In this document: positions 1 to 30,560 of the stretch, piece after piece
How positions within the stretch are numbered: the stretch's first letter is position 1
Layout of the letters: each line of letters opens with the position of its first letter
NCBI GenBank assembly: GCA_040081265.1
Contig: JBEBGV010000001.1
Span: 28,279-92,278, forward strand
Length of the DNA stretch: 64,000 bases
Source of the DNA: Vicinamibacterales bacterium
GTDB lineage: Bacteria > Acidobacteriota > Vicinamibacteria > Vicinamibacterales > UBA2999
Direction of reading: 5' to 3'
Notes under the pieces: model-generated
The model's input: the letters and a program-made list of their open reading frames with translations, nothing else
What the model was told of the DNA's origin: nothing
Database searches by the model: none
Program-made: the position numbers and the translations under genes

Positions 1-140
1 GAGAATATTTCACGCTCGCGAGGTTGAATGAGCCGTCTATATCTTGCCAATATGGCAACCTGCGTTTCGGACGGCAACCAACCTCCACCGCTCCCGAGTT
101 GTTCAAACGAAACTGTTGAAGCCGCCGTGCCACTGATCAT

Positions 141-944
141 TCACTTCTCCATTAACTCTTGGACCGTGTTCGGCTTCAGGAGCCGGAAGAACTGCTCCTT
201 CTCACGTGTATGGGCAACTTCCAGCCATGCCTTGGCATCCTCTGCGCTCTTGATTCTGGCTGATGGTTTCGTGAATACGTCGACGTCAATCACAACAGCA
301 GTACCCTCGGGAAGACTCCCGGTTACGAAGTCGGCGGCAGCTATTCGAACCGTACAGTCGGTATCGTCATGAACGTTGGTAGTGAAGTTCACATTGCTGC
401 TTTCAGGAATGCTCTGCCCGGCAACCGAAACCGTCATGTTCAGGTCCAAGATTCCGTCGACTCGATGGACTGCGGGCTTTAGGCCGTTGATGTACCGCAA
501 TCCGAGTCGTCGGATGTTCGCTTTCCCGGCTTTGCTAAATAGCCCATCGATTGTTTCGAAAAGCTGGCCTCGAAATACCTGCCACCCAGGGTAGGGAGCT
601 AACTGGTGATACGAGAGAACGTGTTCACCGATTCTTACCTTGCGATTGCGCTCAAGGTCGGCGAGTTCGAGCCAAGGGCTGTATCTAAGGTTGCGATCCG
701 ACTGTCTGACTACTGCTGGTATTTCAGAGATCGGCAGGCGGCGTTGATGGAAGTTATTCCAAGCAGAATGGTCCGCTAGTCGACCGAGAAGAATCTCGGG
801 GATGGTCTGTGAATCGAAGCGAATTTCGAGCAGGGCCTCGACGATCGCGTCTTGCTTTAACTTCTCGGGCACGGTCTTAATGCCGCTCGCGTGTATCACG
901 CCATCGCTCTCCAACTCAGTCACAGAAACCCATCGAACAGACAA
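141..944 (-). CDS. Conserved hypothetical protein, TIGR04255-like
   Basis: 267-aa ORF with coding-like composition. The motif RRLGLRYING and the overall layout match my memory of the TIGR04255 family. Function unknown. Confidence 0.55.
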   Translation of the reverse strand: MSVRWVSVTELESDGVIHASGIKTVPEKLKQDAIVEALLEIRFDSQTIPEILLGRLADHSAWNNFHQRRLPISEIPAVVRQSDRNLRYSPWLELADLERNRKVRIGEHVLSYHQLAPYPGWQVFRGQLFETIDGLFSKAGKANIRRLGLRYINGLKPAVHRVDGILDLNMTVSVAGQSIPESSNVNFTTNVHDDTDCTVRIAAADFVTGSLPEGTAVVIDVDVFTKPSARIKSAEDAKAWLEVAHTREKEQFFRLLKPNTVQELMEK

Positions 945-1064
945 ACGGTGCCGTGCAGCATTCTGATGTTCTGTCAGAGTTTAGGACGTTGGATCGATCG
1001 TGTCGATCCCCCCTGCCCGGGGATGCCGAGAAGAACGCGAAGCTTCACAACCTCCTTTGGACGC

Positions 1065-1440
1065 TCAGGGTCGCCGAGAAGATCGTTTGGGAAGCAGAAG
1101 AGGCCAGTCCTGGCCATCGAAGGTCGATCGGGAAGAATCCGACATGTTACTGGCGTCCTGTCTGTGCTTCCCCGACTTCTGCCCTTCCCTGATCAGACCT
1201 ACCAATCTGATGTTGATGAACCCCGGACCGGGAGGCCAGAACGACCGCCGATCCAGGGCGAAAGTAGCTGTTAGGCCGGTGGGGATTGTTGGACCTGTCG
1301 CCGCCAACGCTTCACGGTCGATCGAGATACACCCAGCCTGATTGCGGCGATCTCGCGCGTGAGCCCCTCGACGGCTCTGAGGCGTTCAACCGGTACCCGC
1401 ACCCGAGGAAGACCGCGGGTCACCGTCCCGAATTGAACTG
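1065..1440 (-). pseudogene. Degenerate HTH fragment resembling the N-terminus of an IS630/Tc1-type transposase
   Basis: My reverse-strand translation of about 1290-1435 gives ...PVERLRAVEGLTREIAAIRLGVSRSTVKRWRRQVQQSPPA-stop. Protein-like sequence continues in another frame (track ORF 1065..1307: ATGPTIPTGL...). There is no start codon and no catalytic domain. Confidence 0.35.
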
Positions 1441-1681
1441 ATTTGGGGACAGAGACTGTCTAGAGCGAAAGGTATGTCCGGCGAAGACTTCAGCCCTGGG
1501 CGAAACAGGGAGGATTTTGGAACAGCGGCTCGCTCCCGCGCATCCGCCCCCGATCCGAATTGATCGCCAGAAGTTGGCTCACATAGTCCTCGACCGTCAA
1601 GTTAGACAGCACGGCGCCTCAACGCGGCGCGTCGACGAACTGCTGAACGACGGCTGCAAGTCGTTCGACAGCATCACGCGG

Positions 1682-2578
1682 TCAGCTCGCACCTGCCTGA
1701 TCGAGCGACGCCGCGGAGATGATTGCGGTGAACTCGGTCAGAATCTCTGGATGCTGTTGCGTGAGATAGCGTTTGATGTTTCGGTTGGCGAGGAGTTTCG
1801 CAAGGTAGGCAGCCGCGATCACCAACTGGAGCACGTCCTCACCGTACTGGGCCTCTACGAGCTTTAGGTCTCGTTCGACCGTTTCCATCTCGCGTTCCAT
1901 CCGAGCCATCTGCTCCGACGTGAGGCCGGCGACACGCTTTGGCTGGTCCGATTTCACTAGGTCGATCTGTTTGGTGCCGGCCAAGAGGGCCTTGGCATAG
2001 CTCGTCGTGTAGTTCCCAACGCTGCCCATGAGTTCGGCCACCTCGACTTGACGCATCGGCTTCATCTTTCGAAGCACGTCAAATGTTGTGGGATTAACCG
2101 ATTTGTCTTTAAGGATCTCGACCACCTCCGGACAGATGCTCGTCAGCATCAATCGCCGCCGCTTGATGGCCTTTACATCGAGATTCAGCGCTCGCCCGAG
2201 CTTCTCTTCCGAGACGCCGCGCTTGATAGCGCGAACAATCATGTAGTGCTCTTGTATCGTGGCCAGGCGGCTAATACGTTTGTTATAGGTGAACGCCTCA
2301 TCGTCGGTCGCGATGAGGCAACGAACATCGCTCGCTCCAGCATCAACGAGAATCGTGTAACGCAGATGGCCATCCAGGAGAACATATCGATCCCGGCGTT
2401 CACGCGAACGCGTCACGATGAGCGGTTCAATTACACCCACCTCGGCGATCGAGTGCGCGATCACTTTGTACTTGCTGGAGTGCTTCAGTGTGTCGGGGAC
2501 CACGTGGACAGGCAATAGCGCACCGAGTGGAATGGCGACAGCTTCCCGGTCGAACGCGAGCGTGACCTCCCGCTTCAC
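1682..2578 (-). CDS. ParB N-terminal domain / RepB C-terminal-domain-like protein (second of pair)
   Basis: Track ORF 1682..2692. I place the start at GTG 2578, one nt after the upstream stop (TGAgGTG). Motifs: VIEPLIV, LLDGHLRYT (ParB-type DGxxR), HYMIVRAIKRG. Confidence 0.7.
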   Translation of the reverse strand: MKREVTLAFDREAVAIPLGALLPVHVVPDTLKHSSKYKVIAHSIAEVGVIEPLIVTRSRERRDRYVLLDGHLRYTILVDAGASDVRCLIATDDEAFTYNKRISRLATIQEHYMIVRAIKRGVSEEKLGRALNLDVKAIKRRRLMLTSICPEVVEILKDKSVNPTTFDVLRKMKPMRQVEVAELMGSVGNYTTSYAKALLAGTKQIDLVKSDQPKRVAGLTSEQMARMEREMETVERDLKLVEAQYGEDVLQLVIAAAYLAKLLANRNIKRYLTQQHPEILTEFTAIISAASLDQAGAS

Positions 2579-2579
2579 C

Positions 2580-3461
2580 TCAGGCACGTCCGGTGCCCAG
2601 CCGTTCAGCGAGCGGACGCGGCATGCTGACGATCCCCTCCGCTCGAAGCAAGGTGGTGAAGTGCTCGTCAGCCAGGAGCCGGCGTAAACCATTCACCAGA
2701 AACAGTAGCCGGCGTTGGCTCACGGCTGCCTTTCTTACCAGCAACTTCTGGCGCTCTGTCTCCTTCCGGTACGCGCGAACTAGCGCGTCCGCACTGACCG
2801 GCCTCTTGAGGTTACGGCCAGACACACCCCGTTGCCGAGTCGTCTTACCGGTCAAATTGCGCTGTTCAATGATTCGGCGAATTGCGAGCACCTGATTACC
2901 AGGGAGCGTGCGCTTCTCGTAGGCTTCTGCGAGTGCCTGTTGCACGTCTTCGTCCTTCGCTCGCGCGATTTCCATGGCGATGCTCGGCGGAATGACACCG
3001 CGATCGACGCCGGCAAGGAGTCGTTCCTCCCCGTGATCCAGCAGATAACTGATGGCGGAGACATATTCATCGCTGACCCCGATCTTGCCGGCGATGACGG
3101 TGGTCGAATAGCCACGGTCCCGCAGTTCTCCGATGTTTCTCATCAGCTCGGTGGGTGTGTGGTGCCTGCGCGCCAGATTTTCCACCAGGCTCATGATGAA
3201 ACAGTCTTCGGGAGTCGCCGTGATCACGAGCGCCGGAATGTGCGTCTGCTGGAGGGCCATGAACGCTTCAAGCCGACCCTGTCCGCACACGAGGTCAAAG
3301 CCGGACCCGTCTGCACGCGCGGCCACCGTAATCGGTTTCTTGAGGCCAAGCCGTTCGACACTCTCGACGAGCTCGTTCAAGCTCTTCCTATTTCGTACGC
3401 GTGGATTTAGCACAGAAATAGCATCCACTGCGATCATTTGGACGGCGGTTGGTGCGGTCAT
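2580..3461 (-). CDS. ParB N-terminal domain / RepB C-terminal-domain-like protein (first of pair)
   Basis: 293-aa ORF with LGLKKPITV, VCGQGRLEA and SLVENLARRHHTP (ParB-like boxes). Its ATG overlaps the recombinase stop (ATGA at 3458-3461). Confidence 0.75.
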   Translation of the reverse strand: MTAPTAVQMIAVDAISVLNPRVRNRKSLNELVESVERLGLKKPITVAARADGSGFDLVCGQGRLEAFMALQQTHIPALVITATPEDCFIMSLVENLARRHHTPTELMRNIGELRDRGYSTTVIAGKIGVSDEYVSAISYLLDHGEERLLAGVDRGVIPPSIAMEIARAKDEDVQQALAEAYEKRTLPGNQVLAIRRIIEQRNLTGKTTRQRGVSGRNLKRPVSADALVRAYRKETERQKLLVRKAAVSQRRLLFLVNGLRRLLADEHFTTLLRAEGIVSMPRPLAERLGTGRA

Positions 3462-5026
3462 GCCGCCCCGCGGACTGGCGAACGGGCCGCCAAATGAAAC
3501 AGATAGTCGAGGGATTCGAAGCGGTACGAGTCAAGACTGACGCCGTTATCCTCTCCGACCCGAAGACATGGGGTGTGGGTATCGAGACGTGGCAATAGGT
3601 AGTAGTCCAGGGCGTCCCGATTCGCAGGGTCCATCCGCACAACGACGGTCACGTCGGGTTGTAGGCCAGCATCCAGTCGAATCTTCCACCGCAGCGCACC
3701 AGTCGCCGTTTGCATCGATCTACTCAGCACGATGGAGATCGTGAATTCGTCGTTCACATGCACGAGGTCAGTCTCTGGATCCACGTGTACGGTGCCACCG
3801 AGCGTCCGGATCTCGGCTAGGGTCGCCTGAACCAGCTCGGGGTGAAGCGCACGCAACCGACGGTTGATGTCGATGTAGTGATAATCGCGACGTGGCGTGT
3901 AGCCGATGAGTCGATACGCCTCCAACAGGCTCCCAAACCGCGACCGATAGGCAGAGGTCGAAGGCATGTCGTCGCGCTCGTCGATGACGAGACCGGAGAG
4001 CCAGCCGCGCTCGGAGAGGAGTGTCTTGAGACCTGCCAGCATCTCTGGATCGCTCCATCGACGATGACGCTCCTCGACAATCCGCCGCACTGCCAAGAAC
4101 AGAGTCATATCGACGACAGGCGCGAAGGCCCCTTCGGCGCGAACCCACATCTCGGGAGGGTTAATGACCCGCTTCTGCTTGAGTTTGAAGGACACATGGT
4201 TATAGACGTTGTTGCCGGCATACTTCTCGTTGGTGAGCACTTGGTGCACGGTTCCACGCGTCCAGGGGCGGCCCAGGTCGGTATGAACCCCCTCCGAATT
4301 AAGAGCGTCGGCGATTTGCCGTTCCGTCATACCGTCTGTCAGAAACATGCGATACATGCGACGGACAAGAGCGACTTCTTCGGGCGGGCCTGGAACCAAG
4401 ACCACGCGGTCGGTTTGCAGGCTCTTATGCATCCCGCGCGCGAGTTCGGCCTTTGGTGCCCGATGCTCATCGAGGAGCTGACGGCGTAAACCAAAGCCAG
4501 CAATGCCGCCCTGCCGGAACCCCAGGCTAATCAGACGGCATTGGCCGGCGAAGACCTTAGCCGAGAGCTCGCGGCTGTACTCGCCAGCCATAGCCCGCTT
4601 CATGCCCTTGATGATGGTGGCGCTCAGGCTCCCATCGTTCTCGAACTGTTCAGCGCAATAGTGGACATTGATTCCAGCGCCTTTGCAGATGTACTCGTAG
4701 TACGCACTCTCATCAGCATCCTGAAAGCGACCCCATCTGCTGACGTCATAGACGAGTACGGCGTTGAAGTCAGTTGCTCCGCTCCGCACATCATCGATGA
4801 GCCGTTTGAGCGCGTCTCGGCCGTCTAGCCGCAATCCGCTCTTGCCGTGATCGGCATAGGTTCGCACGATGGCGAACCCACGCTGCGCGGCATAGCGGGC
4901 GATGGCATCGGCCTGGTTCTCGGTCGAGTATCGCTGGTGCTCCGTGGACATTCGGACATACTGGGCGGCTCGGATACGTGTACCCGGCGACAGTTCATTC
5001 CCCGACTCTCGTTGTTCTATGGTCAC
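3458..5026 (-). CDS. Large serine recombinase (resolvase/invertase N-domain + recombinase domain)
   Basis: 522 aa. The N-terminus AAQYVRMSTEHQRYSTENQ is the typical serine-recombinase catalytic-Ser context. DVSRWGR, a recombinase-domain-like middle and a long C-terminal extension follow. Confidence 0.9.
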   Translation of the reverse strand: MTIEQRESGNELSPGTRIRAAQYVRMSTEHQRYSTENQADAIARYAAQRGFAIVRTYADHGKSGLRLDGRDALKRLIDDVRSGATDFNAVLVYDVSRWGRFQDADESAYYEYICKGAGINVHYCAEQFENDGSLSATIIKGMKRAMAGEYSRELSAKVFAGQCRLISLGFRQGGIAGFGLRRQLLDEHRAPKAELARGMHKSLQTDRVVLVPGPPEEVALVRRMYRMFLTDGMTERQIADALNSEGVHTDLGRPWTRGTVHQVLTNEKYAGNNVYNHVSFKLKQKRVINPPEMWVRAEGAFAPVVDMTLFLAVRRIVEERHRRWSDPEMLAGLKTLLSERGWLSGLVIDERDDMPSTSAYRSRFGSLLEAYRLIGYTPRRDYHYIDINRRLRALHPELVQATLAEIRTLGGTVHVDPETDLVHVNDEFTISIVLSRSMQTATGALRWKIRLDAGLQPDVTVVVRMDPANRDALDYYLLPRLDTHTPCLRVGEDNGVSLDSYRFESLDYLFHLAARSPVRGAA

Positions 5027-5104
5027 GGCTACGCCTACTGGAAGCAGGGCTCACGACCCATTCAGTGAGCCTCAGAAGCGTCAGGCTATGCGACGGAGGC
5101 GCAG

Positions 5105-5461
5105 ATGTCGTTGACAAAAGTAGACCGAAAAGATCAGTCCGGAAATGGAACAAACATTCCGGTGCGTTTCGCGGCGGAAGTGGCGTCTGCGCTGCGTCGC
5201 GAGTACGGTGACTCGCGAGCGGCCCTGAAGACGATCGTGGCCCTGACCGGTACCAACGAGCGCGCCGTGAAGAATTGGTTCAACGCCAAGAACGGTCCGA
5301 GTGGCACGTCGCTCATCGTGCTCTGTCGTCAGTCTGACGAGGTCTTCGAGACGATACTGCGCCTGGCTGGTCGGAGTGCACACCTAAAGATGAAGAAACT
5401 GGTAGCAGCCAAGGAAGTGCTGGTGAAGATGCTCGTACTCCTCAGCGAGCTGGAGGATTGA
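5105..5461 (+). CDS. Small hypothetical protein, possible HTH regulator or recombination directionality factor
   Basis: 118-aa ORF divergent from the recombinase. The segment TIVALTGTNERAVKNWFNAKNGPS looks like a helix-turn-helix. Confidence 0.5.
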   Translation: MSLTKVDRKDQSGNGTNIPVRFAAEVASALRREYGDSRAALKTIVALTGTNERAVKNWFNAKNGPSGTSLIVLCRQSDEVFETILRLAGRSAHLKMKKLVAAKEVLVKMLVLLSELED

Positions 5462-5552
5462 GAGTCCCGAATGGAGCCGGCCCAAGCACGGAGGTTGCCT
5501 AGGCCGGAGGTGTGGCAGCGACGGTCTTCAGTTTGAGAGCAGGAGCAGTAGG

Positions 5553-5870
5553 TCAAGGCGAACAAGTTCGCGACAGGTACTCGACCACAATTCGCAGGTG
5601 GCCATCTCGGATTGGCTTCCTTCCGCGATCGTTCAGATGACAACTGAGAATCTGCGACGCTGCAAGATTCTCGAAGCGAACAACGAGCGCCCTTAACACT
5701 TCCTTCGCCGCGTCGAAGCTGATTCGGTGTGCGGGCACGTGTTCATGAAACAGCGGCTCGAAGACACCTTGATTGTATCGACGCAGCTTGAAGCACTTCT
5801 GCTTCGGCACGAGGTCTTCGCACAACTGGAAACCGGAAGACAGTGGTTTGTGGGGTTCAGCCGAAGTCAC
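5553..5870 (-). CDS. Hypothetical protein
   Basis: 105-aa ORF starting 1 nt after the stop of the upstream gene (5872), so co-transcription is likely. No recognisable motif. Confidence 0.45.
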   Translation of the reverse strand: MTSAEPHKPLSSGFQLCEDLVPKQKCFKLRRYNQGVFEPLFHEHVPAHRISFDAAKEVLRALVVRFENLAASQILSCHLNDRGRKPIRDGHLRIVVEYLSRTCSP

Positions 5871-5871
5871 C

Positions 5872-6564
5872 TTACGCCTCGACAGTGATCTTGATGCTCG
5901 ACGGATCGACGCCGAGATGAAGGGCTAATCGTCGCTTCGCCTCGGGAATCGTTATGCCTTCGTTGTCGGCCGCGCTTGGTGTTCTCGTTGATGGCGGTGT
6001 GTTATCGCGCCCATCGCCACTCGCCACATATGGCTCCAGTTCGACCTCGGGTTGAAGACCGGCCGTGTCGATCTCCAATGGAACGCGGACAAGCGGACGA
6101 CGGCCACGGGCGATACCCGCACCAACATGGGTCACTGGATCGGTAGACTCCTCCCGAAACAGCGAGACCCATACGCCTCGACCCACCGGGATCGAATAGC
6201 CCGCGTCAATCCGAGCCTTATATGCCCGGTCGAATCGACGCCGAACGTCGTCGCCATCCAGACGGAAAACGGTGGCAAATGCATGGTCGTCTGGATCCAG
6301 AGAAGCCGCTACCACCTCGTCCACTTCCGACAACGTCACCCAATCGGTGTCTTCCTGGTTTCGAGGAAAGGCAATCCAAGCGTCCTGAGACGTTCGGATT
6401 GAGACTGTCTTGCTCTCTTTATTCTTCGTGATTCGACGAACGCTGGAACTTCCTCCGGGAACGCGGCCCACCGTCCAGCCTTCATCCTGCAGAGCCTTAA
6501 TAGCGATGTCACGAAGCCACCGCCGCAACCGCGTCTTCTTCACTGTTTTAGATACATTAGTCAT
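5872..6564 (-). CDS. Hypothetical protein
   Basis: 230-aa ORF with good coding character and an AT-rich promoter/operator region immediately upstream. I recognise no family. Confidence 0.6.
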   Translation of the reverse strand: MTNVSKTVKKTRLRRWLRDIAIKALQDEGWTVGRVPGGSSSVRRITKNKESKTVSIRTSQDAWIAFPRNQEDTDWVTLSEVDEVVAASLDPDDHAFATVFRLDGDDVRRRFDRAYKARIDAGYSIPVGRGVWVSLFREESTDPVTHVGAGIARGRRPLVRVPLEIDTAGLQPEVELEPYVASGDGRDNTPPSTRTPSAADNEGITIPEAKRRLALHLGVDPSSIKITVEA

Positions 6565-6638
6565 TTGTCACGCTCCCTTGCACGTATACTGAGACACTTG
6601 GATTCATTTGTCAAGAATAACAAACATAACAAATGAAT
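6561..6638. promoter_or_regulatory. Putative operator/promoter of the 5872..6564 operon
   Basis: TCATTTGTCA occurs twice as a direct repeat (6561-6570, overlapping the start codon, and 6604-6613). A perfect 10-bp inverted partner ACAAATGAAT lies at 6629-6638, so the arms ATTCATTTGT/ACAAATGAAT are separated by 17 nt. On the coding (minus) strand a perfect TTGACA lies at 6609-6614, with a weak -10 (CAGTAT/AGTATA) about 17-18 nt downstream. Confidence 0.45.
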
Positions 6639-6729
6639 GGAAGCCATGTATTTGGTGAAACGGCTGGGAGTTATGGGCAGCAAGAGCGAGAGACTCAACC
6701 TCCCGTCATCTTTTAAGGCTCTGAAGGAG

Positions 6730-7086
6730 CTAATTGCCCGTGTAGCTGGCGCTCCTGTTGGGCTTGGAGGGTGTTGGCGGACGACGGCGCGAGGATCGCT
6801 TGGCCTTCTTTTCGGCCAGCTTCCGGAGCCGTTCCTGTTCGGCCTGATGTAGTTCGTCGCGGTCCGCTGCCTGCATCAAGCTCACGCTCTTGATGGCGCG
6901 ACGAACCACGCTCAGCGAGAGGTCGAGATAGGCGACCGCATCGAGGGCATCACCCCATCCGCCCTCTTTGAATACCTGCGTTGGGCGAGTGATTGCTGGC
7001 GAGGTCGTCGTGGCTGGTTGGATCGTTGCGATAGCCGGTGATGGCCTACGCATGACGACGGCCACGGACATTGAAGTGACTGGCAT
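6730..7086 (-). CDS. Hypothetical protein (weak call)
   Basis: Internal Met of track ORF 6730..7251. The C-terminal half (GGWGDALDAVAYLDLSLSVVRRAIKSV...ELHQAEQERLRKLAEKKAK) looks protein-like. The start is uncertain. Confidence 0.3.
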   Translation of the reverse strand: MPVTSMSVAVVMRRPSPAIATIQPATTTSPAITRPTQVFKEGGWGDALDAVAYLDLSLSVVRRAIKSVSLMQAADRDELHQAEQERLRKLAEKKAKRSSRRRPPTPSKPNRSASYTGN

Positions 7087-7171
7087 GACGCCACGAGGTC
7101 GTGAGTCGGATGCCCAAGGGGACCGCCAGCGCTCGCGCTTCCCTTGACGCAGGAGGTATCTTGGTGCCACC

Positions 7172-7570
7172 GTGCCGCTCCCACCGCGCCAGCAGGCTCC
7201 TTCAACGCCCTTCGAGGCCAGTCGCAAGCCGTTTGTTGTCGCAGCTGCCATGATGTTCTTGGCTGCCCTGGCAGACGCTCAGACGTTTCCCTACGTTTAC
7301 TATCAAGTCCTTCGTGTGGTCGTTTGCGGTACGGCAATCTACGGTGCAATGAAGTATTACGTGCTCGCAAGACACGGCGGTTCCGTGATGATGATCTTGC
7401 TTGCATTGCTCTTCAACCCGGTAGCGCCGGTAACACTCCCGAGAAATCTCTGGCGGTTGCTGGATTTCTGGTTGGGTATCTTCCTTCTAGTTGCAGGTAA
7501 CTATCTTGTGACGGACAGCGAGGCCCATGCGTTCAGGGAGGAGCAACGTCGTCGCAACCCTGACTACTGA
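7172..7570 (+). CDS. Small membrane protein, DUF6804-like
   Basis: Three or four hydrophobic helices and the motif LALLFNPVAPVTLPRNLWRLLD. The true start may be the MM at 7250. Confidence 0.55.
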   Translation: MPLPPRQQAPSTPFEASRKPFVVAAAMMFLAALADAQTFPYVYYQVLRVVVCGTAIYGAMKYYVLARHGGSVMMILLALLFNPVAPVTLPRNLWRLLDFWLGIFLLVAGNYLVTDSEAHAFREEQRRRNPDY

Positions 7571-7849
7571 GTCTGTCGTCGTGCAAGGCGTCACTCCACC
7601 CTACCCCTCTTGCACCCGGTGGGGGTGGGTGCCCCCCAAGAGAAAGGCCGCCTAATTTTCGCCGCCGAAGAAAACAGACTCATGAAACTTCAGAGCCCCT
7701 CCCACTGCGTGTTGTTAGTTTGCTCCAGCAGTGGACGACCCAGGCCAGGCAGCTGAAGCGGCTATCCAGATCAAGCGCAATCTGCTTAGAAACGGCACTC
7801 GCAGCTTAGCTCCACCTTGCCGCCCAGCTATTCACAGGCGAGCACCTCT

Positions 7850-9640
7850 TCAAGGCGCCGTGGCTGGGCTCTGCCGCTTCATCCACCCCTTGCGGTCGCC
7901 GCCGGTGGGACTTCGAATGATGACCTCGACGTAGTTAGTTCCGCCGATTGTGCTGCTGCCGCCTGTGTAGACGACTTGTAGCCCCCCCTGCAGCGCCCGC
8001 CCGACGACGACGATTTCGTAGGTGTCGCCTGGACTTCGATAGAGCTCTATGGCTCTGGTGGCTGAAGCAGGTTCGAGAGGACTGTCGGCAGGAATCCAAC
8101 CAGTGCGCTCTGTCCCTATTGATGTCCGCAGCAGTGCCGCCACGTACTCTTTGCCCCCGGTACGCTGACGTCGATTTGTGAAGAACACCAGCACTCCTTG
8201 CTGCGAGAACTCTTCACGGGTAATGAACTGGTAGGAACTTTCGTCTGGACTCCGATAGAACTCAAGACCACTAGCGGACAATCGCAGTGTGAAAGCAGCT
8301 CTCGTGTCACTGCTAGTGAAGGTTGACGATGACGGCGTGATCGAATCAGGCGTCCGCACGCCTGCATCACTGCTAGCGGGAAAATCGCTCACATTCGAAG
8401 CGCTTCCCGGTGTTGCGTCTGGCTCGCTTACGCTACGCTCGGCCGCCTGAGTAGCTTGCTGGGCCCGTTGTACCGTTGGGATGTCTGCTAGAAGCTCGCC
8501 TGAATAAGACTTAGAAAACGGTGGTGTGAAACTTGGTGGACTCTGAGAGACCGAACCCGGCACGATCTCCGTCGATGAGGCAGGCACGATGATACGTGAC
8601 TGTCGTTCTTGAAACATGACAACCAGAGCGACGACAACAACAACACCCGCCAGAGCCCCAAAGACTGGGCCCGGCAGCATTATCGAAGGCCGCGGCTTTG
8701 ATGTTCTCGGCGGCTCCGCGTCTGGTTCGATGGGCTTCTTGGGGCTGACGCGATGGGGAGGCGGAGTCTGAGGCGGAGTTGGCACCGCCTCCCCCGTGGG
8801 GGTCGCAGGTGAAGGTGCGGTGGCTTCTTTTTCTTGCCCCCGACGTGCGTCATAGGCTGAGCGCTCGCTCGCGCCACCGAGAACGCTGTATGCAACATTG
8901 ACTTGCTTGGTTCTCTCCTCCGCGAACCTTCTGTCATCTCCCTTCCACTTGTCCGGGTGGAACAGCAGTAGCAGGCGCTTTCGTGCGTCCTTGATTTCCT
9001 CAACCGATGCGAACGGCGCAACGTCTAGCACCGCGTAATGATCTTGCTCGGCCGGGGTGATTGTCGCTTCTGCGAGGAGTTGAAGCATCAACCGCCACCC
9101 GTACTGGGGTGCAGCATTCATGCTATCAAGTGACTGATATGTACCTTCCTCTCGGTAGAACCTATTCATGCTGCCGAGATATAGACCAAGCTTCTGCACG
9201 TCGCCGTCGCTCAGCGTACCCAGCAACTCCTGCAATAGGACCAGCATCGACATGGACACGAAGTAGACGCTGCTGTTTCCATCGTAGTAGGTCAGGATGA
9301 CTCGCCCACCTCCGCGCTCAATGACGTCTCCACGGCATGTCGCCGTCACTGCGTTGAAAGACCCTTTGCTGAGCACGACACGCCCACCGAGGACATCCGG
9401 ACGACGCTGGGGTTCTGAGACGCAAATCATCACTGCATCTTGCACTGTCGCTATTAGTGCCTCTGTGCGGGCTGAGTCCTTGTGGATGGAATGAAGTGTT
9501 TTTGCGTAGTAGAGTCCCACGTCGAACAGGAGGTTGTTGGAAACCGTCTCAAGGTCGGAGGCGGGCGAACGGTATTCAGCGAACGCCTGCATGGGGCCCC
9601 AGAATCGGATCGTGATTACCCCTACCGTCGGTCTGCTCAT
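7850..9640 (-). CDS. J-domain (DnaJ-like) membrane protein with an unknown N-domain and two C-terminal SH3-like repeats
   Basis: 596 aa. The J-domain reads HYAVLDV...LLLFHPDKWKG...AYSVL...AYD (HPD motif). It is followed by a Pro-rich linker, one TM helix (VFGALAGVVVVVALVVMF) and an S/T/P-rich region. Two related modules of about 60 aa then follow (EFYRSPDESSYQF...TGWIPADS and ELYRSPGDTYEIV...KGWMKRQS). Confidence 0.8.
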   Translation of the reverse strand: MSRPTVGVITIRFWGPMQAFAEYRSPASDLETVSNNLLFDVGLYYAKTLHSIHKDSARTEALIATVQDAVMICVSEPQRRPDVLGGRVVLSKGSFNAVTATCRGDVIERGGGRVILTYYDGNSSVYFVSMSMLVLLQELLGTLSDGDVQKLGLYLGSMNRFYREEGTYQSLDSMNAAPQYGWRLMLQLLAEATITPAEQDHYAVLDVAPFASVEEIKDARKRLLLLFHPDKWKGDDRRFAEERTKQVNVAYSVLGGASERSAYDARRGQEKEATAPSPATPTGEAVPTPPQTPPPHRVSPKKPIEPDAEPPRTSKPRPSIMLPGPVFGALAGVVVVVALVVMFQERQSRIIVPASSTEIVPGSVSQSPPSFTPPFSKSYSGELLADIPTVQRAQQATQAAERSVSEPDATPGSASNVSDFPASSDAGVRTPDSITPSSSTFTSSDTRAAFTLRLSASGLEFYRSPDESSYQFITREEFSQQGVLVFFTNRRQRTGGKEYVAALLRTSIGTERTGWIPADSPLEPASATRAIELYRSPGDTYEIVVVGRALQGGLQVVYTGGSSTIGGTNYVEVIIRSPTGGDRKGWMKRQSPATAP

Positions 9641-9702
9641 TTGGGCCTCAGTGCTCGGGTTTCGCCTGTGGTTTCACGCGACGGGACGCTGCCAACGAAC
9701 TA

Positions 9703-10119
9703 TCAGGTGTTACGCTTCGCAATGTAGACAATGGTGTACAGAACTGAGAGTCCCAATCCCCACGCGGCCTTTGTACGTCCCGCCCCGCCCAAAGACGCTG
9801 CCTTGGATAAGCCCAACGCACTGACAATGACGCCGGCGATCGGCAGCCCCCCGAACTCGTACAGGAAGATCGAAGCGATTCCGAGCCACATACCTGCCGC
9901 TGCCAACGTGTTCTTACGGGGCGGCATGGCGTCGCCGCCGACGATGATATCCACTCTCCCGTTCCTTCTCAGAACCGTGTGTCCGTCCGACGTCCCAGTC
10001 TTGAGTAGAGGCTGGTTATGATCCCGCGGGGCAAAATATACTCGCTTTCGGTCGCTTCGACCTCCAGTCCACCCAGCGGAAGGGTGAAGGGAAGAGCGCA
10101 AGAACCAGCGGAGCCTCAT
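9703..10119 (-). CDS. Small membrane protein, DUF4190-like C-terminus
   Basis: The C-terminal 74 aa (MPPRKNTLAAAGMWLGIASIFLYEFGGLPIAGVIVSALGL...) form two TM helices. The start is ambiguous (10119 or 9927). The upstream part of the track ORF runs through the att-like repeat and is unlikely to be coding. Confidence 0.5.
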   Translation of the reverse strand: MRLRWFLRSSLHPSAGWTGGRSDRKRVYFAPRDHNQPLLKTGTSDGHTVLRRNGRVDIIVGGDAMPPRKNTLAAAGMWLGIASIFLYEFGGLPIAGVIVSALGLSKAASLGGAGRTKAAWGLGLSVLYTIVYIAKRNT

Positions 10120-10308
10120 CGATCCTGTGGACGCGTAACTACGCTGCTTGAGTCGGTCCGCCTGCACCTGTTTTAGGAGGTAAATAATGGGTGTGGGCGC
10201 TGTGGAAATCGCTGCGCGATTCCCAAGGACTTGTGGGCGCGTCCTTGCGTCCATGGGTCCGGCAGGGTCCCCACCATTTTCCCCTCCGGTCTTGGACTCC
10301 CTGCCGCC

Positions 10309-10328
10309 GAATCCTTTCTTCCGCACCA
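10309..10328 (+). repeat. tRNA 3'-end fragment (att-like), copy 1
   Basis: GAATCCTTTCTTCCGCACCA reads as the end of a T-loop, the T-stem 3' arm, the acceptor 3' arm, discriminator A and CCA. No matching 5' half lies upstream. It is identical to 12129-12148. Confidence 0.7.
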
Positions 10329-10407
10329 TCACCACGAATGGCCAGCAAATGCTGGCCGTTTTTGTTTGGTAGCTAACGGATAGCTAACGGCGGCACGCGG
10401 CAGCAGA

Positions 10408-11121
10408 TCAGATGAGTCCGTTGGCCTTCGTTTGGTTGCAGCGACGGCATAGCAGCTGGATGTTTGCTTCCGTCGCGCTGCCTCCGCGTGAGTGTGGAAT
10501 GACGTGATCAAATTGCAATTCGTCGGTCGAGCTGCACTTGATGCACGCACCACCATCACGTGACCAAACGAGAAGTTTTACGTCGTCGGGAATTGCCGTT
10601 CGAATTCGCCCGCCGGTTCGCATCGTTTCGATGGCCTCGAAATTTGCGACTTGTTCCCTCAAGCGTTGAAACTCGCCGTCTACCTTGAACTGAGCGGCCT
10701 TTATTCGCAAGATTACTTCTGCGATTTCGGCGTTGCGTGGCTGACGTGACGTGAGCCAGATTGCACTTCGGTACAGCCAAAGCCAACGGCGGAGAAGACC
10801 ATCCTGCCATTCAAACTGCTCAAGGAGCGAGACTGGGGTCAGCGCCGACTCGTTGTGTGCTTCGAGTCCGATGAACGGCTGCAGCGGCACCGTCACTTCT
10901 CGGGCCGTTCCTCCTTCCCCGACAATGATCTCAACTCGGAAGCCCGGATGCGGCGCGTCTGGACAAGCCGGCAAGTTAAGCAAACAACTGACGACACTTC
11001 CCAAACTGAAGGTGTGGCCTGGTGGCGGTGTGAACTCCGTCACTAGTTCGTCGCCGTCAATGGCGAATATCTTGTCGACCGAAATAGCCATCCGATATCC
11101 GTTCGCTACCGGATTATGCAA
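10408..11121 (-). CDS. HNH endonuclease domain protein with an unknown N-terminal domain
   Basis: The C-terminus reads VWSRDGGACIKCSSTDELQFDHVIPHSRGGSATEANIQLLCRRCNQTK (HNH/ββα-Me motif). An alternative start is Met at 11091. Confidence 0.8.
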   Translation of the reverse strand: MHNPVANGYRMAISVDKIFAIDGDELVTEFTPPPGHTFSLGSVVSCLLNLPACPDAPHPGFRVEIIVGEGGTAREVTVPLQPFIGLEAHNESALTPVSLLEQFEWQDGLLRRWLWLYRSAIWLTSRQPRNAEIAEVILRIKAAQFKVDGEFQRLREQVANFEAIETMRTGGRIRTAIPDDVKLLVWSRDGGACIKCSSTDELQFDHVIPHSRGGSATEANIQLLCRRCNQTKANGLI

Positions 11122-11256
11122 ACCTCGGCATTTGATCGCAAGGGCTTGGCGGAAGTTCCCATCCGTACCGGTTTTGTTATCCCGCTCGTTGCCTCACTGC
11201 CCCGCCAGGCGGCTCATGATCGCGCCTGCCGTCAGCTGCAAGCCATGTTGGGCCGC

Positions 11257-11835
11257 TCACGGCTGTTCCATGTGCGACTTGATGAACTTTTTGTACGCCG
11301 CAACATTCGCCAACCGCAATCTGAAGCTTGCATGCAATGCGGTGGCGTTCGATGCCTTGCGAAAAGAATTTCGTCCGCAGCCGTCGAAGCCAACCTCGGA
11401 CATGGCCCCAGCACCGAGAGCCTCGCACCACGCTCGAATGTCGGCAACAAATCCGACGAGGTCCTTCCTGCTAAGGCCCTGCGCGGTAAGCTGCCCATGA
11501 AAGATCTTGTTCCGGTGCATCGTCGCAGCCGAAAGCCGGGCACGCAAGTGCGCGTATTTGGGTCCGACGAGTTGACTCACCGGAAGCGGGTACAGCGCAT
11601 CCCACCCCTTCAACAAGCCGTCGAAGTACACCTTCCTACTACTTTCGAGTTCGGCCCTCAGCGTCGGGACGGTCGCCTGGCTGCACCACGAATGCTGATA
11701 GACAAGAAATGTTACGAGCTTCCGGGCCTGCTTCTCGGCCTTGATTAGTGACAGCGCAAAGGCATCGACACCAAGAGTCTCTGCGCCTGAAGCTAGGACC
11801 ACATCGATAGTCTTGAACTCGTCCGCGATATTCAT
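11257..11835 (-). CDS. Hypothetical protein with a HEPN-type Rx4H motif (putative RNase)
   Basis: Start taken at MNIADEF (11835) within track ORF 11257..11913. The motif SAATMHRNKIFHGQL gives R-N-K-I-F-H, the Rx4-6H signature of HEPN domains, in an alpha-helical context. Confidence 0.55.
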   Translation of the reverse strand: MNIADEFKTIDVVLASGAETLGVDAFALSLIKAEKQARKLVTFLVYQHSWCSQATVPTLRAELESSRKVYFDGLLKGWDALYPLPVSQLVGPKYAHLRARLSAATMHRNKIFHGQLTAQGLSRKDLVGFVADIRAWCEALGAGAMSEVGFDGCGRNSFRKASNATALHASFRLRLANVAAYKKFIKSHMEQP

Positions 11836-12128
11836 GCGTTCTTGTCGGCCAACTAGTATTACGCCGACCGACCTATGTCGGCCGACCCTGCGAGGCTCGC
11901 AGGATAACGCCAAACCGGCCTCACCGGAACACGTCCGTAGCCGACGCCGTTTACGCGGTTACGCATCGCCGGAGCGTCAGTCTGGCACTGTCGGCTCCAG
12001 CGTTAGGTTAACGAACACGGCGATACGGCGCGATACGAGGCGGCACAATGGGCGCCAAAGACGCTAAATTCTCGGAATGAAATCACACGAAGTGGTAGAG
12101 ACGGATACCAGACGGTATCAACTCGGCG

Positions 12129-12148
12129 GAATCCTTTCTTCCGCACCA
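12129..12148 (+). repeat. tRNA 3'-end fragment (att-like), copy 2
   Basis: A perfect 20-nt copy of 10309-10328; the flanks diverge on both sides. Confidence 0.7.
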
Positions 12149-12238
12149 ACCCTCAAAACACCTAGCATTCGCTGGGTGTTCTGATCAGGATGCTCCCGGA
12201 TCGCTCCCGAACAGGTCGGCACGCAATACACTGGCGCG

Positions 12239-12967
12239 GTGGCGCTGTCGTCTAAGACTCTGTCCCGGCTCGCAGGCGTTCTGGAACGCACCTTCACTCA
12301 CGCGCAGCTCGATACTCTCTTTCTCGAATACGGCGTTCGACAGCGGGATCCGACCGAAGCCAACGCGAATAAACTCCGGCGCAGCGTCATTCTTGTCGAC
12401 GCTGTTCGAGCTACTCGTGAAGAGAAGAAAGCGACTCAGGATCTCTTGGAGTTGGCTGGCAGAACCTTGTTTACCAGCACTCCCGGACAAGAAGTAGATC
12501 TTCTCAGGGCAGCGCTCCGAGTCGATGGATTTGAATGGACTGGAGAAGAACTCGTCCCAAGCGAACCCGGACAAACGCCACTAGCTCCCGAACTGACCGC
12601 GTTGGAGCGACGACTCCAACAAATGGGCTTCAATGTCGCAGCGACGCACTACCGACAGGCGGTAGATAACTTCACGGATGGCAACTTTGAAGCTTGCAAT
12701 GGGCAGTTGCGGTCCTTTCAAGAAGACCTAGTTCGGGAGGCAGCACGACGACACGGTCAGCAACAGACAGCAGGCGTGGATGTCTGTCTTCAGCACCTTC
12801 GAAACAGCGGTCGGCTGGATGCGGAGGAATGGAACATTTTTCGATCGTTGTGGAATGGCATTCAGAACAACGGTCCGCACGCGGGACTGACTACAGAGGA
12901 GGAAGCTCGCTTTCGCCTTCACATGCTGACGGCCGCCGGTCGCTATCTATTGATCAAGATCGCTTAG
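12239..12967 (+). CDS. Hypothetical protein, possibly Abi-like (Abi_C/HEPN-like C-terminus, tentative)
   Basis: 242-aa ORF. The C-terminal LWNGIQNNGPHAGLTTEEEARFRLHMLTAAGRYLL resembles the xN..G.HG helix of abortive-infection C-terminal domains, but Q replaces the usual R. Confidence 0.4.
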   Translation: MALSSKTLSRLAGVLERTFTHAQLDTLFLEYGVRQRDPTEANANKLRRSVILVDAVRATREEKKATQDLLELAGRTLFTSTPGQEVDLLRAALRVDGFEWTGEELVPSEPGQTPLAPELTALERRLQQMGFNVAATHYRQAVDNFTDGNFEACNGQLRSFQEDLVREAARRHGQQQTAGVDVCLQHLRNSGRLDAEEWNIFRSLWNGIQNNGPHAGLTTEEEARFRLHMLTAAGRYLLIKIA

Positions 12968-13217
12968 CCACAGCGACATTTACTTTCGTCTCTTCTGGGC
13001 CATCGAGATTCTTCTCGCAAGAGTTTACTCCTGCGCGCGTCGGCCAGCGGCTCGGCCCGTTGACCTGTCCGGCGTAGTACACACCGTCGCGACAGGTGTA
13101 GAACATCATCGCGCGGGCGTACTCGGTGCCCTCGGGATACTTCAGGGTGACGCGGTGCCAGCCGCGACAGTGCGGACAGTGGATCTCGTCGTGCTCGTGC
13201 AGTCGCGGTCCGTGCAT
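12954..13217 (-). CDS. Small Cys/His-rich hypothetical protein (zinc-ribbon-like)
   Basis: 87 aa with HCPHCRGWH...YTCRDG. It is convergent with, and overlaps by 14 nt, the previous gene, and is divergent from the DUF4268 gene. Confidence 0.45.
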   Translation of the reverse strand: MHGPRLHEHDEIHCPHCRGWHRVTLKYPEGTEYARAMMFYTCRDGVYYAGQVNGPSRWPTRAGVNSCEKNLDGPEETKVNVAVAKRS

Positions 13218-13360
13218 GACGCATCAGACCGCGTGAGCGTGACAGGCGAGGTCATTCGGTGAAAGAGCGCGCACCGCATACAATCACCATCACCTTTTTG
13301 ACATTGCCGATCTCGACTCTTCTGGTTCGATCTCCCTTTGGACGACACGAGGGTTACTAG

Positions 13361-14347
13361 ATGGCACAGCAGATGTTAGGGCGTCTTGAACGAGTGGAAC
13401 TCCGAGACATCTGGATATCCGAAGCGTCAGACTTCACTCCATGGCTGGCACGACCGGAAAACCTTGCAGTCCTCGCCGAGACGCTCGCCATGGACTTGGA
13501 GCTGGAGGCTCAGGAGCGCGCCGTCGGTCCGTTTCGCGCCGATATTCTCTGCAAGGAAATCGGAACCGACAGATGGGTACTGATCGAAAATCAACTGGAA
13601 CGGACCGATCACAGTCATCTCGGCCAGCTTCTTACTTACGCGTCCGGGCTGGAGGCCGTCACCATTGTCTGGATCGCCGCCAAGTTCACTGAAGAACATC
13701 GGTCTACCCTGGACTGGCTGAATCGGATCACCGACAAAAGCTTCCGCTTCTTTGGCCTTGAAGTGGAGTTGTGGCGGATTGGCCAATCTCCCGCCGCACC
13801 GAAGTTCAACATCGTGTCGAAGCCGAATGACTGGTCCACGTCCGTCGCGAGCGCCGCCCGTGCGATTGATGATGCCGAGTTGTCGGAGACGCGCGTGATC
13901 CAGAAGGCGTATTGGGCCGCCCTCAATCCGGTACTGACTGCGGCCAAGGGACCGGTATCGGGCAACAGGAAGCCGCAGCCGGCATCCTGGATGAACTTTC
14001 CGATCGGGCGAATGGAGTTCCGGTTGAGTGCGAGTATGATTCGCTCGAAACGGCAAATTCGCGCCGAGCTCTACATCGCCGGCGATGACGCGAAGGCATT
14101 GTTTGCTTCCCTGAAACAGCAGAAAGACGCGATCGAAAGAGATCTGAGCTATCCGCTCGAATGGGAAGAATTGCCATCGAAGCGGGATTGCCGCGTGGCG
14201 TCATACCTTCAGGATGTGGATCCGGAGGACGAGACGGACTGGACACGTCAGCACGACTGGCTAACCCGACGCTTGAATGACTTTCATCGAGTATTCTCGC
14301 AGCGGGTCAGGACGCTGGATGTTGCTCAATTGCCCGAGGGCGACTAG
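13361..14347 (+). CDS. DUF4268 domain protein with an N-terminal PD-(D/E)xK-like nuclease fold
   Basis: 328 aa. The N-terminus FRADILCKEIGTDRWVLIENQLERTDHSHLGQLLTYASG is the characteristic D...E-x-Q/K nuclease-like core of this family. The C-terminal half is DUF4268-like (AYWAAL...NFPIGR...). Confidence 0.75.
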   Translation: MAQQMLGRLERVELRDIWISEASDFTPWLARPENLAVLAETLAMDLELEAQERAVGPFRADILCKEIGTDRWVLIENQLERTDHSHLGQLLTYASGLEAVTIVWIAAKFTEEHRSTLDWLNRITDKSFRFFGLEVELWRIGQSPAAPKFNIVSKPNDWSTSVASAARAIDDAELSETRVIQKAYWAALNPVLTAAKGPVSGNRKPQPASWMNFPIGRMEFRLSASMIRSKRQIRAELYIAGDDAKALFASLKQQKDAIERDLSYPLEWEELPSKRDCRVASYLQDVDPEDETDWTRQHDWLTRRLNDFHRVFSQRVRTLDVAQLPEGD

Positions 14348-14386
14348 CCGCTCGTCGCTCAAGCAGACTTCAGAGGCTTAATCATT

Positions 14387-14644: not shown

Positions 14645-15371
14645 GATCGGCGCACTACCGCATCGCTCGCGCCTTCCGCAGCCACATATCCCCATCCAGC
14701 ACGTCGGCGTAGAGACACCGTCGCGGGCTGCGGTCGAAATGCCACAACAGCAGGAGATGCGCGCTTAACCACGCCCGCCACGCGACGCGGTCCCCCATGC
14801 GCCGCGCGTAGAGCACCGCCGCGCACGCGGGCAGCAGATCGTCCGTGGTGCCATCCGGCGATAGCACCCCCGCTGCGCCGAACCGTGCCTCGTACGAATA
14901 CCGACTGCTCCTGATGTCGTTGCACGACGCAACCCTACGACATCCGGAACGGTGGTGCGGCCGAACCCGCCCATCCCCCGTCTCCAAAATGTCTCCACGA
15001 CCGAGGAGGATTCACGAGGACTCGAGCGGACGTGCGAAGACGAACCGAGCTGCATGTCGCCCGGCGCATCGCCGACGATACTCCTGCCTTGTTCGGAACT
15101 GTCCCCACGATTGTCCCTGAGACGCGCCAAACCAGCGCCGCCAGAGCCAACGCCAGCCAACTCGCTCGATCGGGGAAGTACAAAACAGTGAAGGATTTGC
15201 GAGGAAAATCGAAGATGTCCGAGAGGCGGATTTCCGTTTAGCAAACCGCCGCTTTCGGCCACTCAGCCACCTCACCGCGGGAGTCTCAGTATACGACAGG
15301 CGTCAGCTTCGCTGAGGAACACGAGGGCGTAGAATTGTGGTGGCGGGCGACGGCTCCGCAGCGGTCGCCTT

Positions 15372-30486: not shown

Positions 30487-30560
30487 TGGGACGTCGTTCA
30501 ACGGTAGGACACCTGCCTCTGGAGCAGGTTATTGGGGTTCGAATCCCTGCGTCCCAGCCA
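30487..30560 (+). tRNA. tRNA-Gln (anticodon CUG), CCA encoded
   Basis: Hand-folded cloverleaf. Acceptor TGGGACG/CGTCCCA, D-arm GTTC/GGAC, anticodon stem CCTGC/GCAGG with loop CTCTGGA, T-arm TGGGG-TTCGAAT-CCCTG (two G-T wobbles), discriminator G, CCA. Confidence 0.85.

Follow-up and report, generated by a model that had tools for sequence, protein, structure and literature searches.

The window, by which is meant the whole 64,000-nt stretch of DNA that was analysed, comes from a Vicinamibacterales MAG and opens in a low-GC island. The first part of this island, representing the distal end of what is here termed segment A, occupies positions 1..10308 on the minus strand and has a GC content of 0.53-0.60, whereas the remainder of the window lies at 0.62-0.68. 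Profile matches from Pfam and NCBIfam place here a TIGR04255-family gene, two ParB/RepB-like genes, a large recombinase (3458-5026), a DnaJ-domain protein gene (7850-9640) and a small DUF4190-like gene (9703-9927). The recombinase is of the serine type, as the first-pass annotation had described it, with both Resolvase and Recombinase domains. Segment A is followed by segment B (10329-12128, 1.8 kb), which has identical 20-mers at both ends, and then by segment C, which runs from 12149 to about 14.67 kb.

Segment B carries two minus-strand genes. The first (10408..11091) encodes an HNH endonuclease of 227 aa that matches PF01844 (E 6e-13; 49.1 bits against a cut-off of 21.4) and HNH_5 (E 2.6e-11), the same region being matched also by IscB and REase_II models. 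The second (11257..11835) encodes a HEPN-like protein of 192 aa, which is identical to NCBI ABL986_00170 from a Vicinamibacterales MAG. Its motif RNKIFHG contains a conserved Rx4H arrangement, in keeping with the conserved Rx4-6H motif of HEPN domain proteins, and a set of 18 homologues (49-82% identity) shows no variation at R108, N109, K110, F112, H113 and G114. There is a weak CARF_HEPN match to this protein and none of the Pfam HEPN models gives a significant one. Profile searches of the genes of segment B revealed no recombinase, integration or transfer genes, and the earlier description of the inner segment as an HNH and a HEPN-motif gene travelling without an integrase is therefore accurate. 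The idea that the two genes form a conserved two-gene system was considered and rejected, as the HEPN-like homologues are found elsewhere either solo or with other neighbours.

In segment C the cargo consists of three plus-strand genes, namely a 242-aa ORF (12239-12967), a PDC-S11/DUF4268 candidate defence gene (13361-14347) and an 85-aa ORF (14387-14644). The match of the second of these to PDC-S11, a computational candidate system of PADLOC, is full-length (E 5.7e-126; residues 4-318 of 328) and is accompanied by a match to PF14088 (E 3e-28). The GC content remains at 0.55-0.60 until about 14.4 kb, such that the foreign low-GC region extends past the second 20-mer to about 14.5-14.6 kb and takes in another defence gene, which indicates that the array probably has at least three modules and not two. 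The claim of two successive insertions is thus supported with respect to tandem accretion at a tRNA site, whereas the number of modules that it implied is probably too low. Segment C may end in a decayed third copy of the repeat: a candidate, CTTCCGCAGCCA at 14673..14684 on the plus strand, matches the repeat's final 11 nt apart from a single inserted G. It coincides with the step in GC, and is by itself not significant (three such matches in the window versus 2.5 expected).

What, then, is the repeat? The 20-mer GAATCCTTTCTTCCGCACCA occurs exactly twice in the window, at 10309-10328 (copy 1) and 12129-12148 (copy 2), in both cases on the plus strand, in direct orientation and between genes. 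No further copy is present at up to three mismatches on either strand of the whole window, and no match arose in 100 dinucleotide-preserving shuffles, giving a chance expectation in the window of 0; the dispersed repeat that had been named as the alternative is consequently not what is found. The sequence is made up of T-loop GAAT, the 3' arm of the T-stem CCTTT, the 3' arm of the acceptor stem CTTCCGC, discriminator A and CCA, and it is identical to the last 20 nt (T-loop nt 57 to CCA, tRNA nt 57-76) of the intact tRNA-Leu(GAG) gene carried by six genomes of the Vicinamibacterales/Acidobacteriota (L001, L004, L005, L007, L008 and L009), with a seventh gene, in L003, differing by one base. The tRNA-Leu(GAG) of all six begins with GCGGAAG, the start that had been predicted from the repeat when it was first recognised as a tRNA 3' end. 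Given that the window is itself derived from a Vicinamibacterales MAG, the repeat represents a tRNA fragment from the lineage of the host. Sequence identity breaks off abruptly at either end of both copies, and the match to the tRNA extends over 21 nt in copy 1, which has one extra upstream C, and over 20 nt in copy 2; left limits that differ by only 1 nt fit a common attP core better than random truncation. Neither copy is preceded by the 5' half of a tRNA, again as first noted, since ARAGORN finds a tRNA-Gln at 30487 as the sole tRNA of the whole window and a permissive Rfam scan of 9600-15600 gives no tRNA-like match at either copy and no tRNA body upstream. The 20-mer is absent from viral contigs, and plasmid and phage collections contain nothing similar to 9928-12250.

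Within the Vicinamibacterales tRNA-Leu(GAG) is a recurrent integration site. For instance, in L003 the tRNA-Leu is followed by an integrase-less island of 6.4 kb and then by a 66-nt 3' fragment, and in L002 a 464-aa tyrosine integrase (PF00589) ends 25 nt ahead of a 57-nt tRNA fragment, with both fragment and integrase sharing a contig with the intact tRNA-Leu of L004. An insert of about 1 kb is present at the tRNA-Leu site of L001, and the sites of L005 and L008 are apparently empty. The closure of islands by 3' fragments at the same tRNA in other members of the order supports the interpretation of the window's copies as attR-type sequences. The order hence displays two crossover classes on the same tRNA-Leu(GAG), one of 20 nt in the window and one of 57-66 nt in L002 and L003. 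The window has no synteny with the tRNA-Leu loci of the other genomes and there is no empty-site comparison for its strain; no assembly variant without segment B was found, the metagenome contigs showing the integrated form only.

The sequence to the right of copy 1 also bears on its origin. A hairpin resembling an intrinsic terminator, GGCCAGC-AAAT-GCTGGCC followed by a T-run (10336..10367, plus strand, 11-pair stem), sits 8 nt past the CCA in the orientation expected of the terminator of a tRNA transcript, and an equivalent hairpin is found 3' of the intact tRNA-Leu in both L001 and L009. Alignment with these two genomes also brings out a tandem motif, TAGCTAACGGA / TAGCTAACGG followed by CGGCACGC, at 10370..10398 on the plus strand, which contains the only two occurrences of GCTAACGG in the window. 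This tandem GCTAACGGA motif is identical at 22 of 27 positions to the collinear position in L009, a score reached by none of 2000 shuffles, and the flank has an 11-mer in common with L001, where 19 of 2000 shuffles reach the score. The resemblance of this flank to the sequence 3' of an intact tRNA-Leu is a further point for the attR-type interpretation. The motif itself is a candidate for a recombination-arm motif, or for a conserved sequence downstream of tRNA-Leu. To the right of copy 2, over 12157..12224 on the plus strand, alignment with the flank of copy 1 reveals a hairpin AACACCTAGC-ATTC-GCTGGGTGTT, a tandem TGCTCCCGGA / TCGCTCCCGAA and CGGCACGC, with an arrangement and offsets that are collinear with those 3' of copy 1; taken alone, the pairwise similarity of the two right flanks is weak, its score being reached by 173 of 2000 shuffles. 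On their left sides the copies are unrelated by alignment, so that segments A and B have no recognisable common P arm. The right arm of segment B (12001..12128, plus strand) holds a cluster of short repeats, with GATAC at 12022, 12032 and 12104 on the plus strand and at 12115 on the minus strand, within GCGATACGGCGCGATACGA and GACGGATACCAGACGGTATC. No other 120-nt stretch of the window is as rich in GATAC, with four copies here against a maximum of two elsewhere, and we infer that these arm motifs could serve as protein-binding sites.

To the left of the window, segment A runs on into a BREX-like system. Metagenome contig L016, which is 100% identical to window positions 1-9917 and so belongs to the same strain, adds 9.9 kb in this direction, and contig L017/L018 of a related strain (94% identical) reaches about 19 kb beyond L016, giving a view of about 29 kb to the left of the window; both extensions contain only defence genes and an IS. 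The first-pass annotation had looked to this side for an intact tRNA and an adjacent tyrosine integrase, an expectation that was not borne out over the distance covered. An intact tRNA-Leu is present neither in the window nor in the 9.9 kb of L016 nor in the approximately 29 kb of the related strain, there are no extra copies of the 20-mer in L016 or L017/L018, and no PF00589 match to a tyrosine integrase is found, whether among the window's island genes or in the gene tables for L016-L018. A tblastn match to the L002 integrase at 51.7 kb proved to be spurious, lying opposite a TonB-dependent receptor gene.

Taken together, these observations make it likely that both 20-mers represent 3' ends of tRNA-Leu(GAG) that were displaced and left behind by site-specific integration, and that the island is a tandem accretion array at a tRNA-Leu gene. 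In such a process integration would target the Vicinamibacterales bacterium's tRNA-Leu(GAG) gene in its T-loop/acceptor part, with the incoming element supplying a new tRNA 3' end such that the gene would stay intact whilst the old 3' end would be displaced downstream. Reuse of the same site, or entry at a resident att copy, would then generate a head-to-tail array, with an order that would read tRNA-Leu (far to the left), segment A, copy 1, segment B, copy 2 and segment C. Segment A would be the large member, with a BREX-like system, the serine recombinase together with the two ParB-like genes, and the DnaJ-domain protein, and segment B is probably the middle module. We infer the intact tRNA upstream, a tyrosine integrase as the agent and the order of events. 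The large serine recombinase of segment A would be an unusual agent, as serine recombinases have no known targeting of tRNA genes (PMC4383910).

One alternative is that copy 1 is not displaced at all and is instead the stump of the tRNA-Leu gene itself, the 5' 66 nt of which were lost when a deletion occurred later or when the DNA bearing the serine recombinase and BREX genes was inserted, so that only copy 2 would be a displaced end and segment B the sole integrated island. The terminator and tandem motif 3' of copy 1, which are the same as those behind the intact tRNA-Leu of L001 and L009, count in its favour, as do the lack of any arm-like similarity between the left flanks of the two copies and the failure to find a tRNA to the left. 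The truncation of the stump would, however, have to leave 21 nt where copy 2 has 20, so that the two left limits differ by no more than 1 nt, an unlikely coincidence of about 1 in 40 unless an attP core sets both; it would entail the loss of a tRNA-Leu(GAG) gene that each of the six related genomes has kept at such a locus, and the permissive Rfam scan detects no remnant of the 5' part of the tRNA. This explanation is accordingly regarded as unlikely.

A second possibility concerns the right border of the island, where a degenerate tRNA-Ser(GCU)-like sequence is found on the minus strand at 15186..15276 (21.4 bits with the Rfam tRNA model, for which the gathering score is 29; no call by ARAGORN). 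The low-GC island or array could be anchored here, in which case the tRNA-Leu fragments would be passengers from an earlier tRNA-Leu site in another host. When aligned with a genuine tRNA-Ser(GCT) the sequence has a canonical 5' half, including a D-arm 21-mer present in genuine tRNA-Ser genes, and a decayed or chimeric, mismatched 3' half, as if the two had been joined in the anticodon loop; it also lies near the right border, just outside the island, and metagenome contigs break within it, at 15247-15265, as they do at 9908-9917. Against this, the step in GC is some 550 bp to the left with core-like DNA in between, the sequence itself being in DNA of core GC, there is no adjacent integrase, no displaced 3' fragment of tRNA-Ser exists in the window or in L016, and an array excised as a unit should re-enter a tRNA-Leu site. 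An anchor at tRNA-Ser is thus held to be quite improbable. Largely refuted, and scarcely credible, is the notion that no tRNA-directed integration was involved, the 20-mer being a repeat that is dispersed or due to chance, or else a target duplication produced by a transposon or a homing HNH cassette. Two of ten database matches (L006 and L010) do fall within long ORFs in phyla that are unrelated and are put down to chance, about one chance match being expected in 596 Gb, but the window holds just two intergenic copies in the same orientation where none are expected, and these have exactly the sequence with which tRNA-Leu(GAG) ends in the same bacterial order. In addition, copy 1 has a terminator and flank of the tRNA type, the HEPN-like gene is not regularly accompanied by the HNH gene elsewhere, and we know of no transposon that produces 20-bp duplications of this kind, which counts against such an origin.

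With displacement of tRNA-Leu ends as the preferred explanation, the locus can be compared with the islands catalogued by Islander. Islands are as a rule recognised by a tDNA, an intact tRNA or tmRNA gene, together with its displaced 3' fragment, and tandem arrays are known, amounting to 125 among 3919 islands, although a tandem array is accepted by Islander only if every member has its own integrase and fragment (PMC4383910). As in these islands, foreign low-GC DNA with defence and mobility genes (GC 0.53-0.61 versus 0.62-0.68) is closed in the window by a direct-orientation 3' fragment of a tRNA that is of the host's lineage and is used in its relatives, and more than one fragment is present in series. 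The extent of the fragment, from T-loop through CCA, fits crossover class J, which lies in the T-loop or at the T/acceptor junction (PMC4383910). The differences are that the sequence viewed includes neither an intact tRNA nor a tyrosine integrase, the latter being on board in comparator L002, that segments B and C each lack their own set of integrase plus fragment, and that the host is an uncultured acidobacterium.

Segment B can also be set beside the CIMEs. These, together with accretion, are described in passages of PMC5704250 that refer to ICESt1/ICESt3 of Streptococcus thermophilus (Pavlovic 2004 and Bellanger 2011, cited there). Like them, segment B has two att-type repeats and no integration or transfer genes, and lies in tandem with a larger element, the features by which a CIME arising from decay and accretion is defined. 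In contrast to the CIMEs of ICESt1/ICESt3, which target the 3' end of fda, the target of segment B is a tRNA gene and its cargo two nuclease-type genes. It also differs in having, over the sequence covered, no neighbouring element with an integrase of the same site specificity, the only recombinase seen in segment A being of the large serine type. Segment B may therefore be best viewed as a decayed or hitch-hiking CIME-type element, which would be mobile only when its cognate tyrosine integrase is provided in trans. A more speculative view, to which we give little credence, is that segment B is a still-mobile, integrase-less mini-island, the conserved core and repeat-rich arms of which (the tandem GCTAACGGA on one side and the GATAC cluster on the other) would be used by a tyrosine integrase encoded elsewhere for its excision and re-insertion, and that small nuclease or defence cassettes are shuttled in this way between tRNA-Leu(GAG) sites of soil Acidobacteria. 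Were this true, the array would be a modular, exchangeable 'cassette rack' and no graveyard of decayed islands.

No new mechanism is involved in any of this, for it is textbook knowledge that tRNA genes gather elements by tandem accretion and harbour remnants devoid of an integrase, as is seen here in a little-studied lineage. The significance of the locus lies in the precise module boundaries that it provides within the large defence island of a soil acidobacterium that is uncultured, in tRNA-Leu(GAG) as an integration hot spot common to the Vicinamibacterales with at least two crossover classes, and in the use to which short tRNA relics can be put in splitting such islands into units of acquisition. 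As in defence islands and hot spots more generally, the array brings together BREX-like genes in its left extension, the HNH and HEPN-like nucleases and PDC-S11. It differs from them in that matches to catalogued defence models are confined to PDC-S11 and the BREX-like genes, and in that the HEPN-like/HNH pair is no conserved two-gene system. The related strain additionally carries a reverse transcriptase, HEPN_AbiV and a Gabija-like pair.

The repeat GAATCCTTTCTTCCGCACCA is found at exactly two sites in the 64-kb window, 10309-10328 (copy 1) and 12129-12148 (copy 2), both on the + strand, and no extra copy is present within the window when up to three mismatches are allowed. When genomes representing each prokaryotic species once (596 Gb in all) were scanned for exact matches, the 20-mer turned up in ten places. 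In six of them (L001, L004, L005, L007, L008 and L009, all from Vicinamibacterales or unclassified Acidobacteriota) it forms the 3'-terminal 20 nt of a tRNA-Leu(GAG) gene called by ARAGORN, with the sequence GCGGAAGTGGCGGAACTGGCAGACGCACCAGCTTGAGGGGCTGG...GAAGGTTCGAATCCTTTCTTCCGCACCA. The first-pass annotation had parsed the 20-mer as T-loop end, T-stem 3' arm, acceptor 3' arm (CTTCCGC), discriminator A and CCA, and had predicted a tRNA gene beginning GCGGAAG; given these six genes the parse is correct, and the predicted start matches them. Two further matches lie within long ORFs, in a Pirellulaceae (L006) and a Hydrogenedentota (L010) genome, a number in keeping with chance, which should yield about one match to a 20-mer in 596 Gb.

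Neither copy is associated with a tRNA body, since the sole tRNA called by ARAGORN in the window is a tRNA-Gln at 30487 and a permissive Rfam scan of 9600-15600 gave no tRNA-like match at copy 1 or copy 2; the absence of a 5' tRNA half upstream of both, as originally described, is thereby borne out. The limits of identity are 21 nt for copy 1 and 20 nt for copy 2, and because the left ends fall within one base of each other the pair argues for a common attP core over accidental truncation. What, then, is copy 1? An 11-pair hairpin with a T-run lies 8 nt after it, oriented like a tRNA terminator, followed on the 3' side by the tandem TAGCTAACGGA/TAGCTAACGG and then CGGCACGC, and the same layout is found 3' of the intact tRNA-Leu in L009 and L001. 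This motif block, collinear with that of L009, matches it at 22 of 27 positions (a score reached by 0 of 2000 shuffles), and has an 11-mer in common with L001 (19 of 2000 shuffles). With both layout and block matching, copy 1 and its right flank are, on sequence grounds, a genuine 'downstream of tRNA-Leu' junction. A truncated tRNA stump is the less likely reading of copy 1, the near-equal limits of the two copies favouring the attP core. Copy 2 is likewise followed by a hairpin, the tandem GCTCCCGGA/GCTCCCGAA and CGGCACGC, at the same offsets, with a weak pairwise right-flank score against copy 1 (173 of 2000 shuffles). Copies 1 and 2 have unrelated left flanks. GATAC is densest in the 120 nt left of copy 2, where it occurs four times; no other such stretch in the window has more than two. 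A 61-aa ORF at 10187-10372 (+), which has a textbook Shine-Dalgarno (AGGAGG, 7 nt, ATG) and no family match, runs uninterrupted across copy 1 and the hairpin behind it. This may be a true small gene lying at the end of segment A, the DNA left of copy 1, or an ORF that arose by chance.

tRNA-Leu(GAG) is a recurrent integration site, with islands at it in other Vicinamibacterales (L003 204-6657 and L002 3982-5457). L003 has a 66-nt 3' fragment (98.5% identity) 6.4 kb downstream of its tRNA-Leu(GAG), the intervening DNA encoding a histidine kinase, a KaiC-like ATPase and two Crp-type regulators but no integrase. L002, a second locus on the contig of L004, whose tRNA is intact, has a 57-nt 3' fragment, preceded by a 464-aa tyrosine integrase (PF00589) that ends 25 nt before it. 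In L001 about 1 kb of extra DNA, with one gene, separates tRNA-Leu from the native terminator, while L005 and L008 have the look of empty sites, the native terminator lying close to tRNA-Leu. The long fragments of L003 and L002 begin in the anticodon arm and those of the window in the T-loop, so that this tRNA is used by two or more crossover classes (A and J as named in PMC4383910). The L002 fragment was miscalled as a full tRNA by ARAGORN; its acceptor stem is unpaired. Upstream of tRNA-Leu in L008, an Acidobacteriota MAG, lies a long tandem-repeat array (3540-8000; ~285-bp units, ~75-84% identity), which is probably a repetitive protein-coding gene.

The window is best read as a tandem array whose attachment site is tRNA-Leu(GAG), in the order presumed upstream tRNA, segment A, copy 1, segment B (10329-12128), copy 2 and segment C, perhaps followed by a decayed copy 3. 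Such an array would have grown through repeated integration of the tyrosine-integrase type into the T-loop/acceptor part of the tRNA. Since a resident att copy could have received a newcomer just as the tRNA could, the order of insertion is unreadable. The repeat pair is a real finding, and its initial interpretation as accretion at a tRNA att site is sound at its core, with the array larger than first described: GC is 0.53-0.61 from 1 to ~14.4 kb and 0.62-0.68 beyond, with the step at ~14.4-14.65 kb, so the foreign region reaches well past copy 2. The array helps to set module limits within an acidobacterial defence island; mechanistically it offers nothing new.

Segment B was rightly said to hold an HNH endonuclease and a HEPN-like gene with no integrase, and would represent a CIME-like remnant, comparable in this respect to the CIMEs of PMC5704250; no contig without it was seen among the metagenome contigs compared. 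The HEPN-like protein is identical to ABL986_00170 of a Vicinamibacterales MAG, encoded on a 272.5-kb contig, which places the window in that order; its motif RNKIFHG is invariant in 18 homologues. A conserved two-gene HEPN-like/HNH system was rejected, the HEPN-like homologues being solo or otherwise paired. Segment C (12149 to ~14.67 kb) contains a 242-aa ORF, a DUF4268 protein (13361-14347, +) matching the PADLOC candidate defence system PDC-S11 (E 5.7e-126) and an 85-aa ORF. At its end, where GC rises to core level, CTTCCGCAGCCA (14673-14684, +) consists of the last 11 nt of the repeat plus one inserted G; it is not significant by itself (2.5 expected) but, being well placed at the GC step, is a possible remnant of a third att copy, now decayed.

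A degenerate tRNA-Ser(GCU)-like sequence lies just beyond, at 15186-15276 (-), its Rfam score of 21.4 bits falling short of the 29-bit threshold; an island anchored on it is less likely than the tRNA-Leu array. Its 5' half (acceptor, D arm, anticodon loop TTGCTAA) is near-identical to genuine tRNA-Ser genes, and its 3' half has a mismatched anticodon-stem strand, a non-canonical T-loop (TCCTCGC), two G.U acceptor pairs and no CCA, so that it looks like an anticodon-loop-joined chimera or a decaying gene. Metagenome contig breaks fall inside it. Chance or transposon duplication is also a less likely source of the 20-mer pair, which had no occurrence in 100 shuffles.

Segment A encodes a TIGR04255 protein, two ParB/RepB-like proteins, a large serine recombinase, a DnaJ-domain protein and a small DUF4190-like protein. 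The recombinase gene and, after it, two consecutive ParB_N/RepB-domain genes form one block (1682-5026, -) midway along segment A. As serine recombinases have no known use of tDNAs (PMC4383910), this enzyme is probably unrelated to the att copies and tRNA-Leu sites. The upstream tRNA with a tyrosine integrase that had been anticipated was not seen: the window, L016 (a metagenome contig 100% identical to window 1-9917) and L017/L018 (from a 94%-identical relative, extending further left) contain no intact tRNA-Leu, no tyrosine integrase and no repeat copy beyond the two. Locus-tag numbering suggests some 20 more genes leftward on the source contig, which could be ended by an IS present there in the related strain.

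Leftward, L016 encodes ThyX, an HTH_17 protein, a BrxC/PglY-like DUF6079 protein and a PglX-type methylase, and L017/L018 an SNF2 helicase, PglZ, an IS, a reverse transcriptase, HEPN_AbiV, a ligase and a UvrD/AAA_15 pair. Within this DNA a BREX-like cluster (L016 12209-19777 plus L018) comprises HTH_17, a 167-aa protein, DUF6079, PglX, SNF2 helicase and PglZ; after it in the relative the ligase is ATP-dependent and the UvrD/AAA_15 pair Gabija-like. Together the cluster and the relative's further genes are a very large defence island. No metagenome contig spans 9908-9917: contigs from different samples either stop at 9917 (L011 and L016) or begin at 9908 (L013). This break lies ~390 bp to the left of copy 1, where the small DUF4190-like gene begins, and may reflect strain variation in segment A, not at the repeat.
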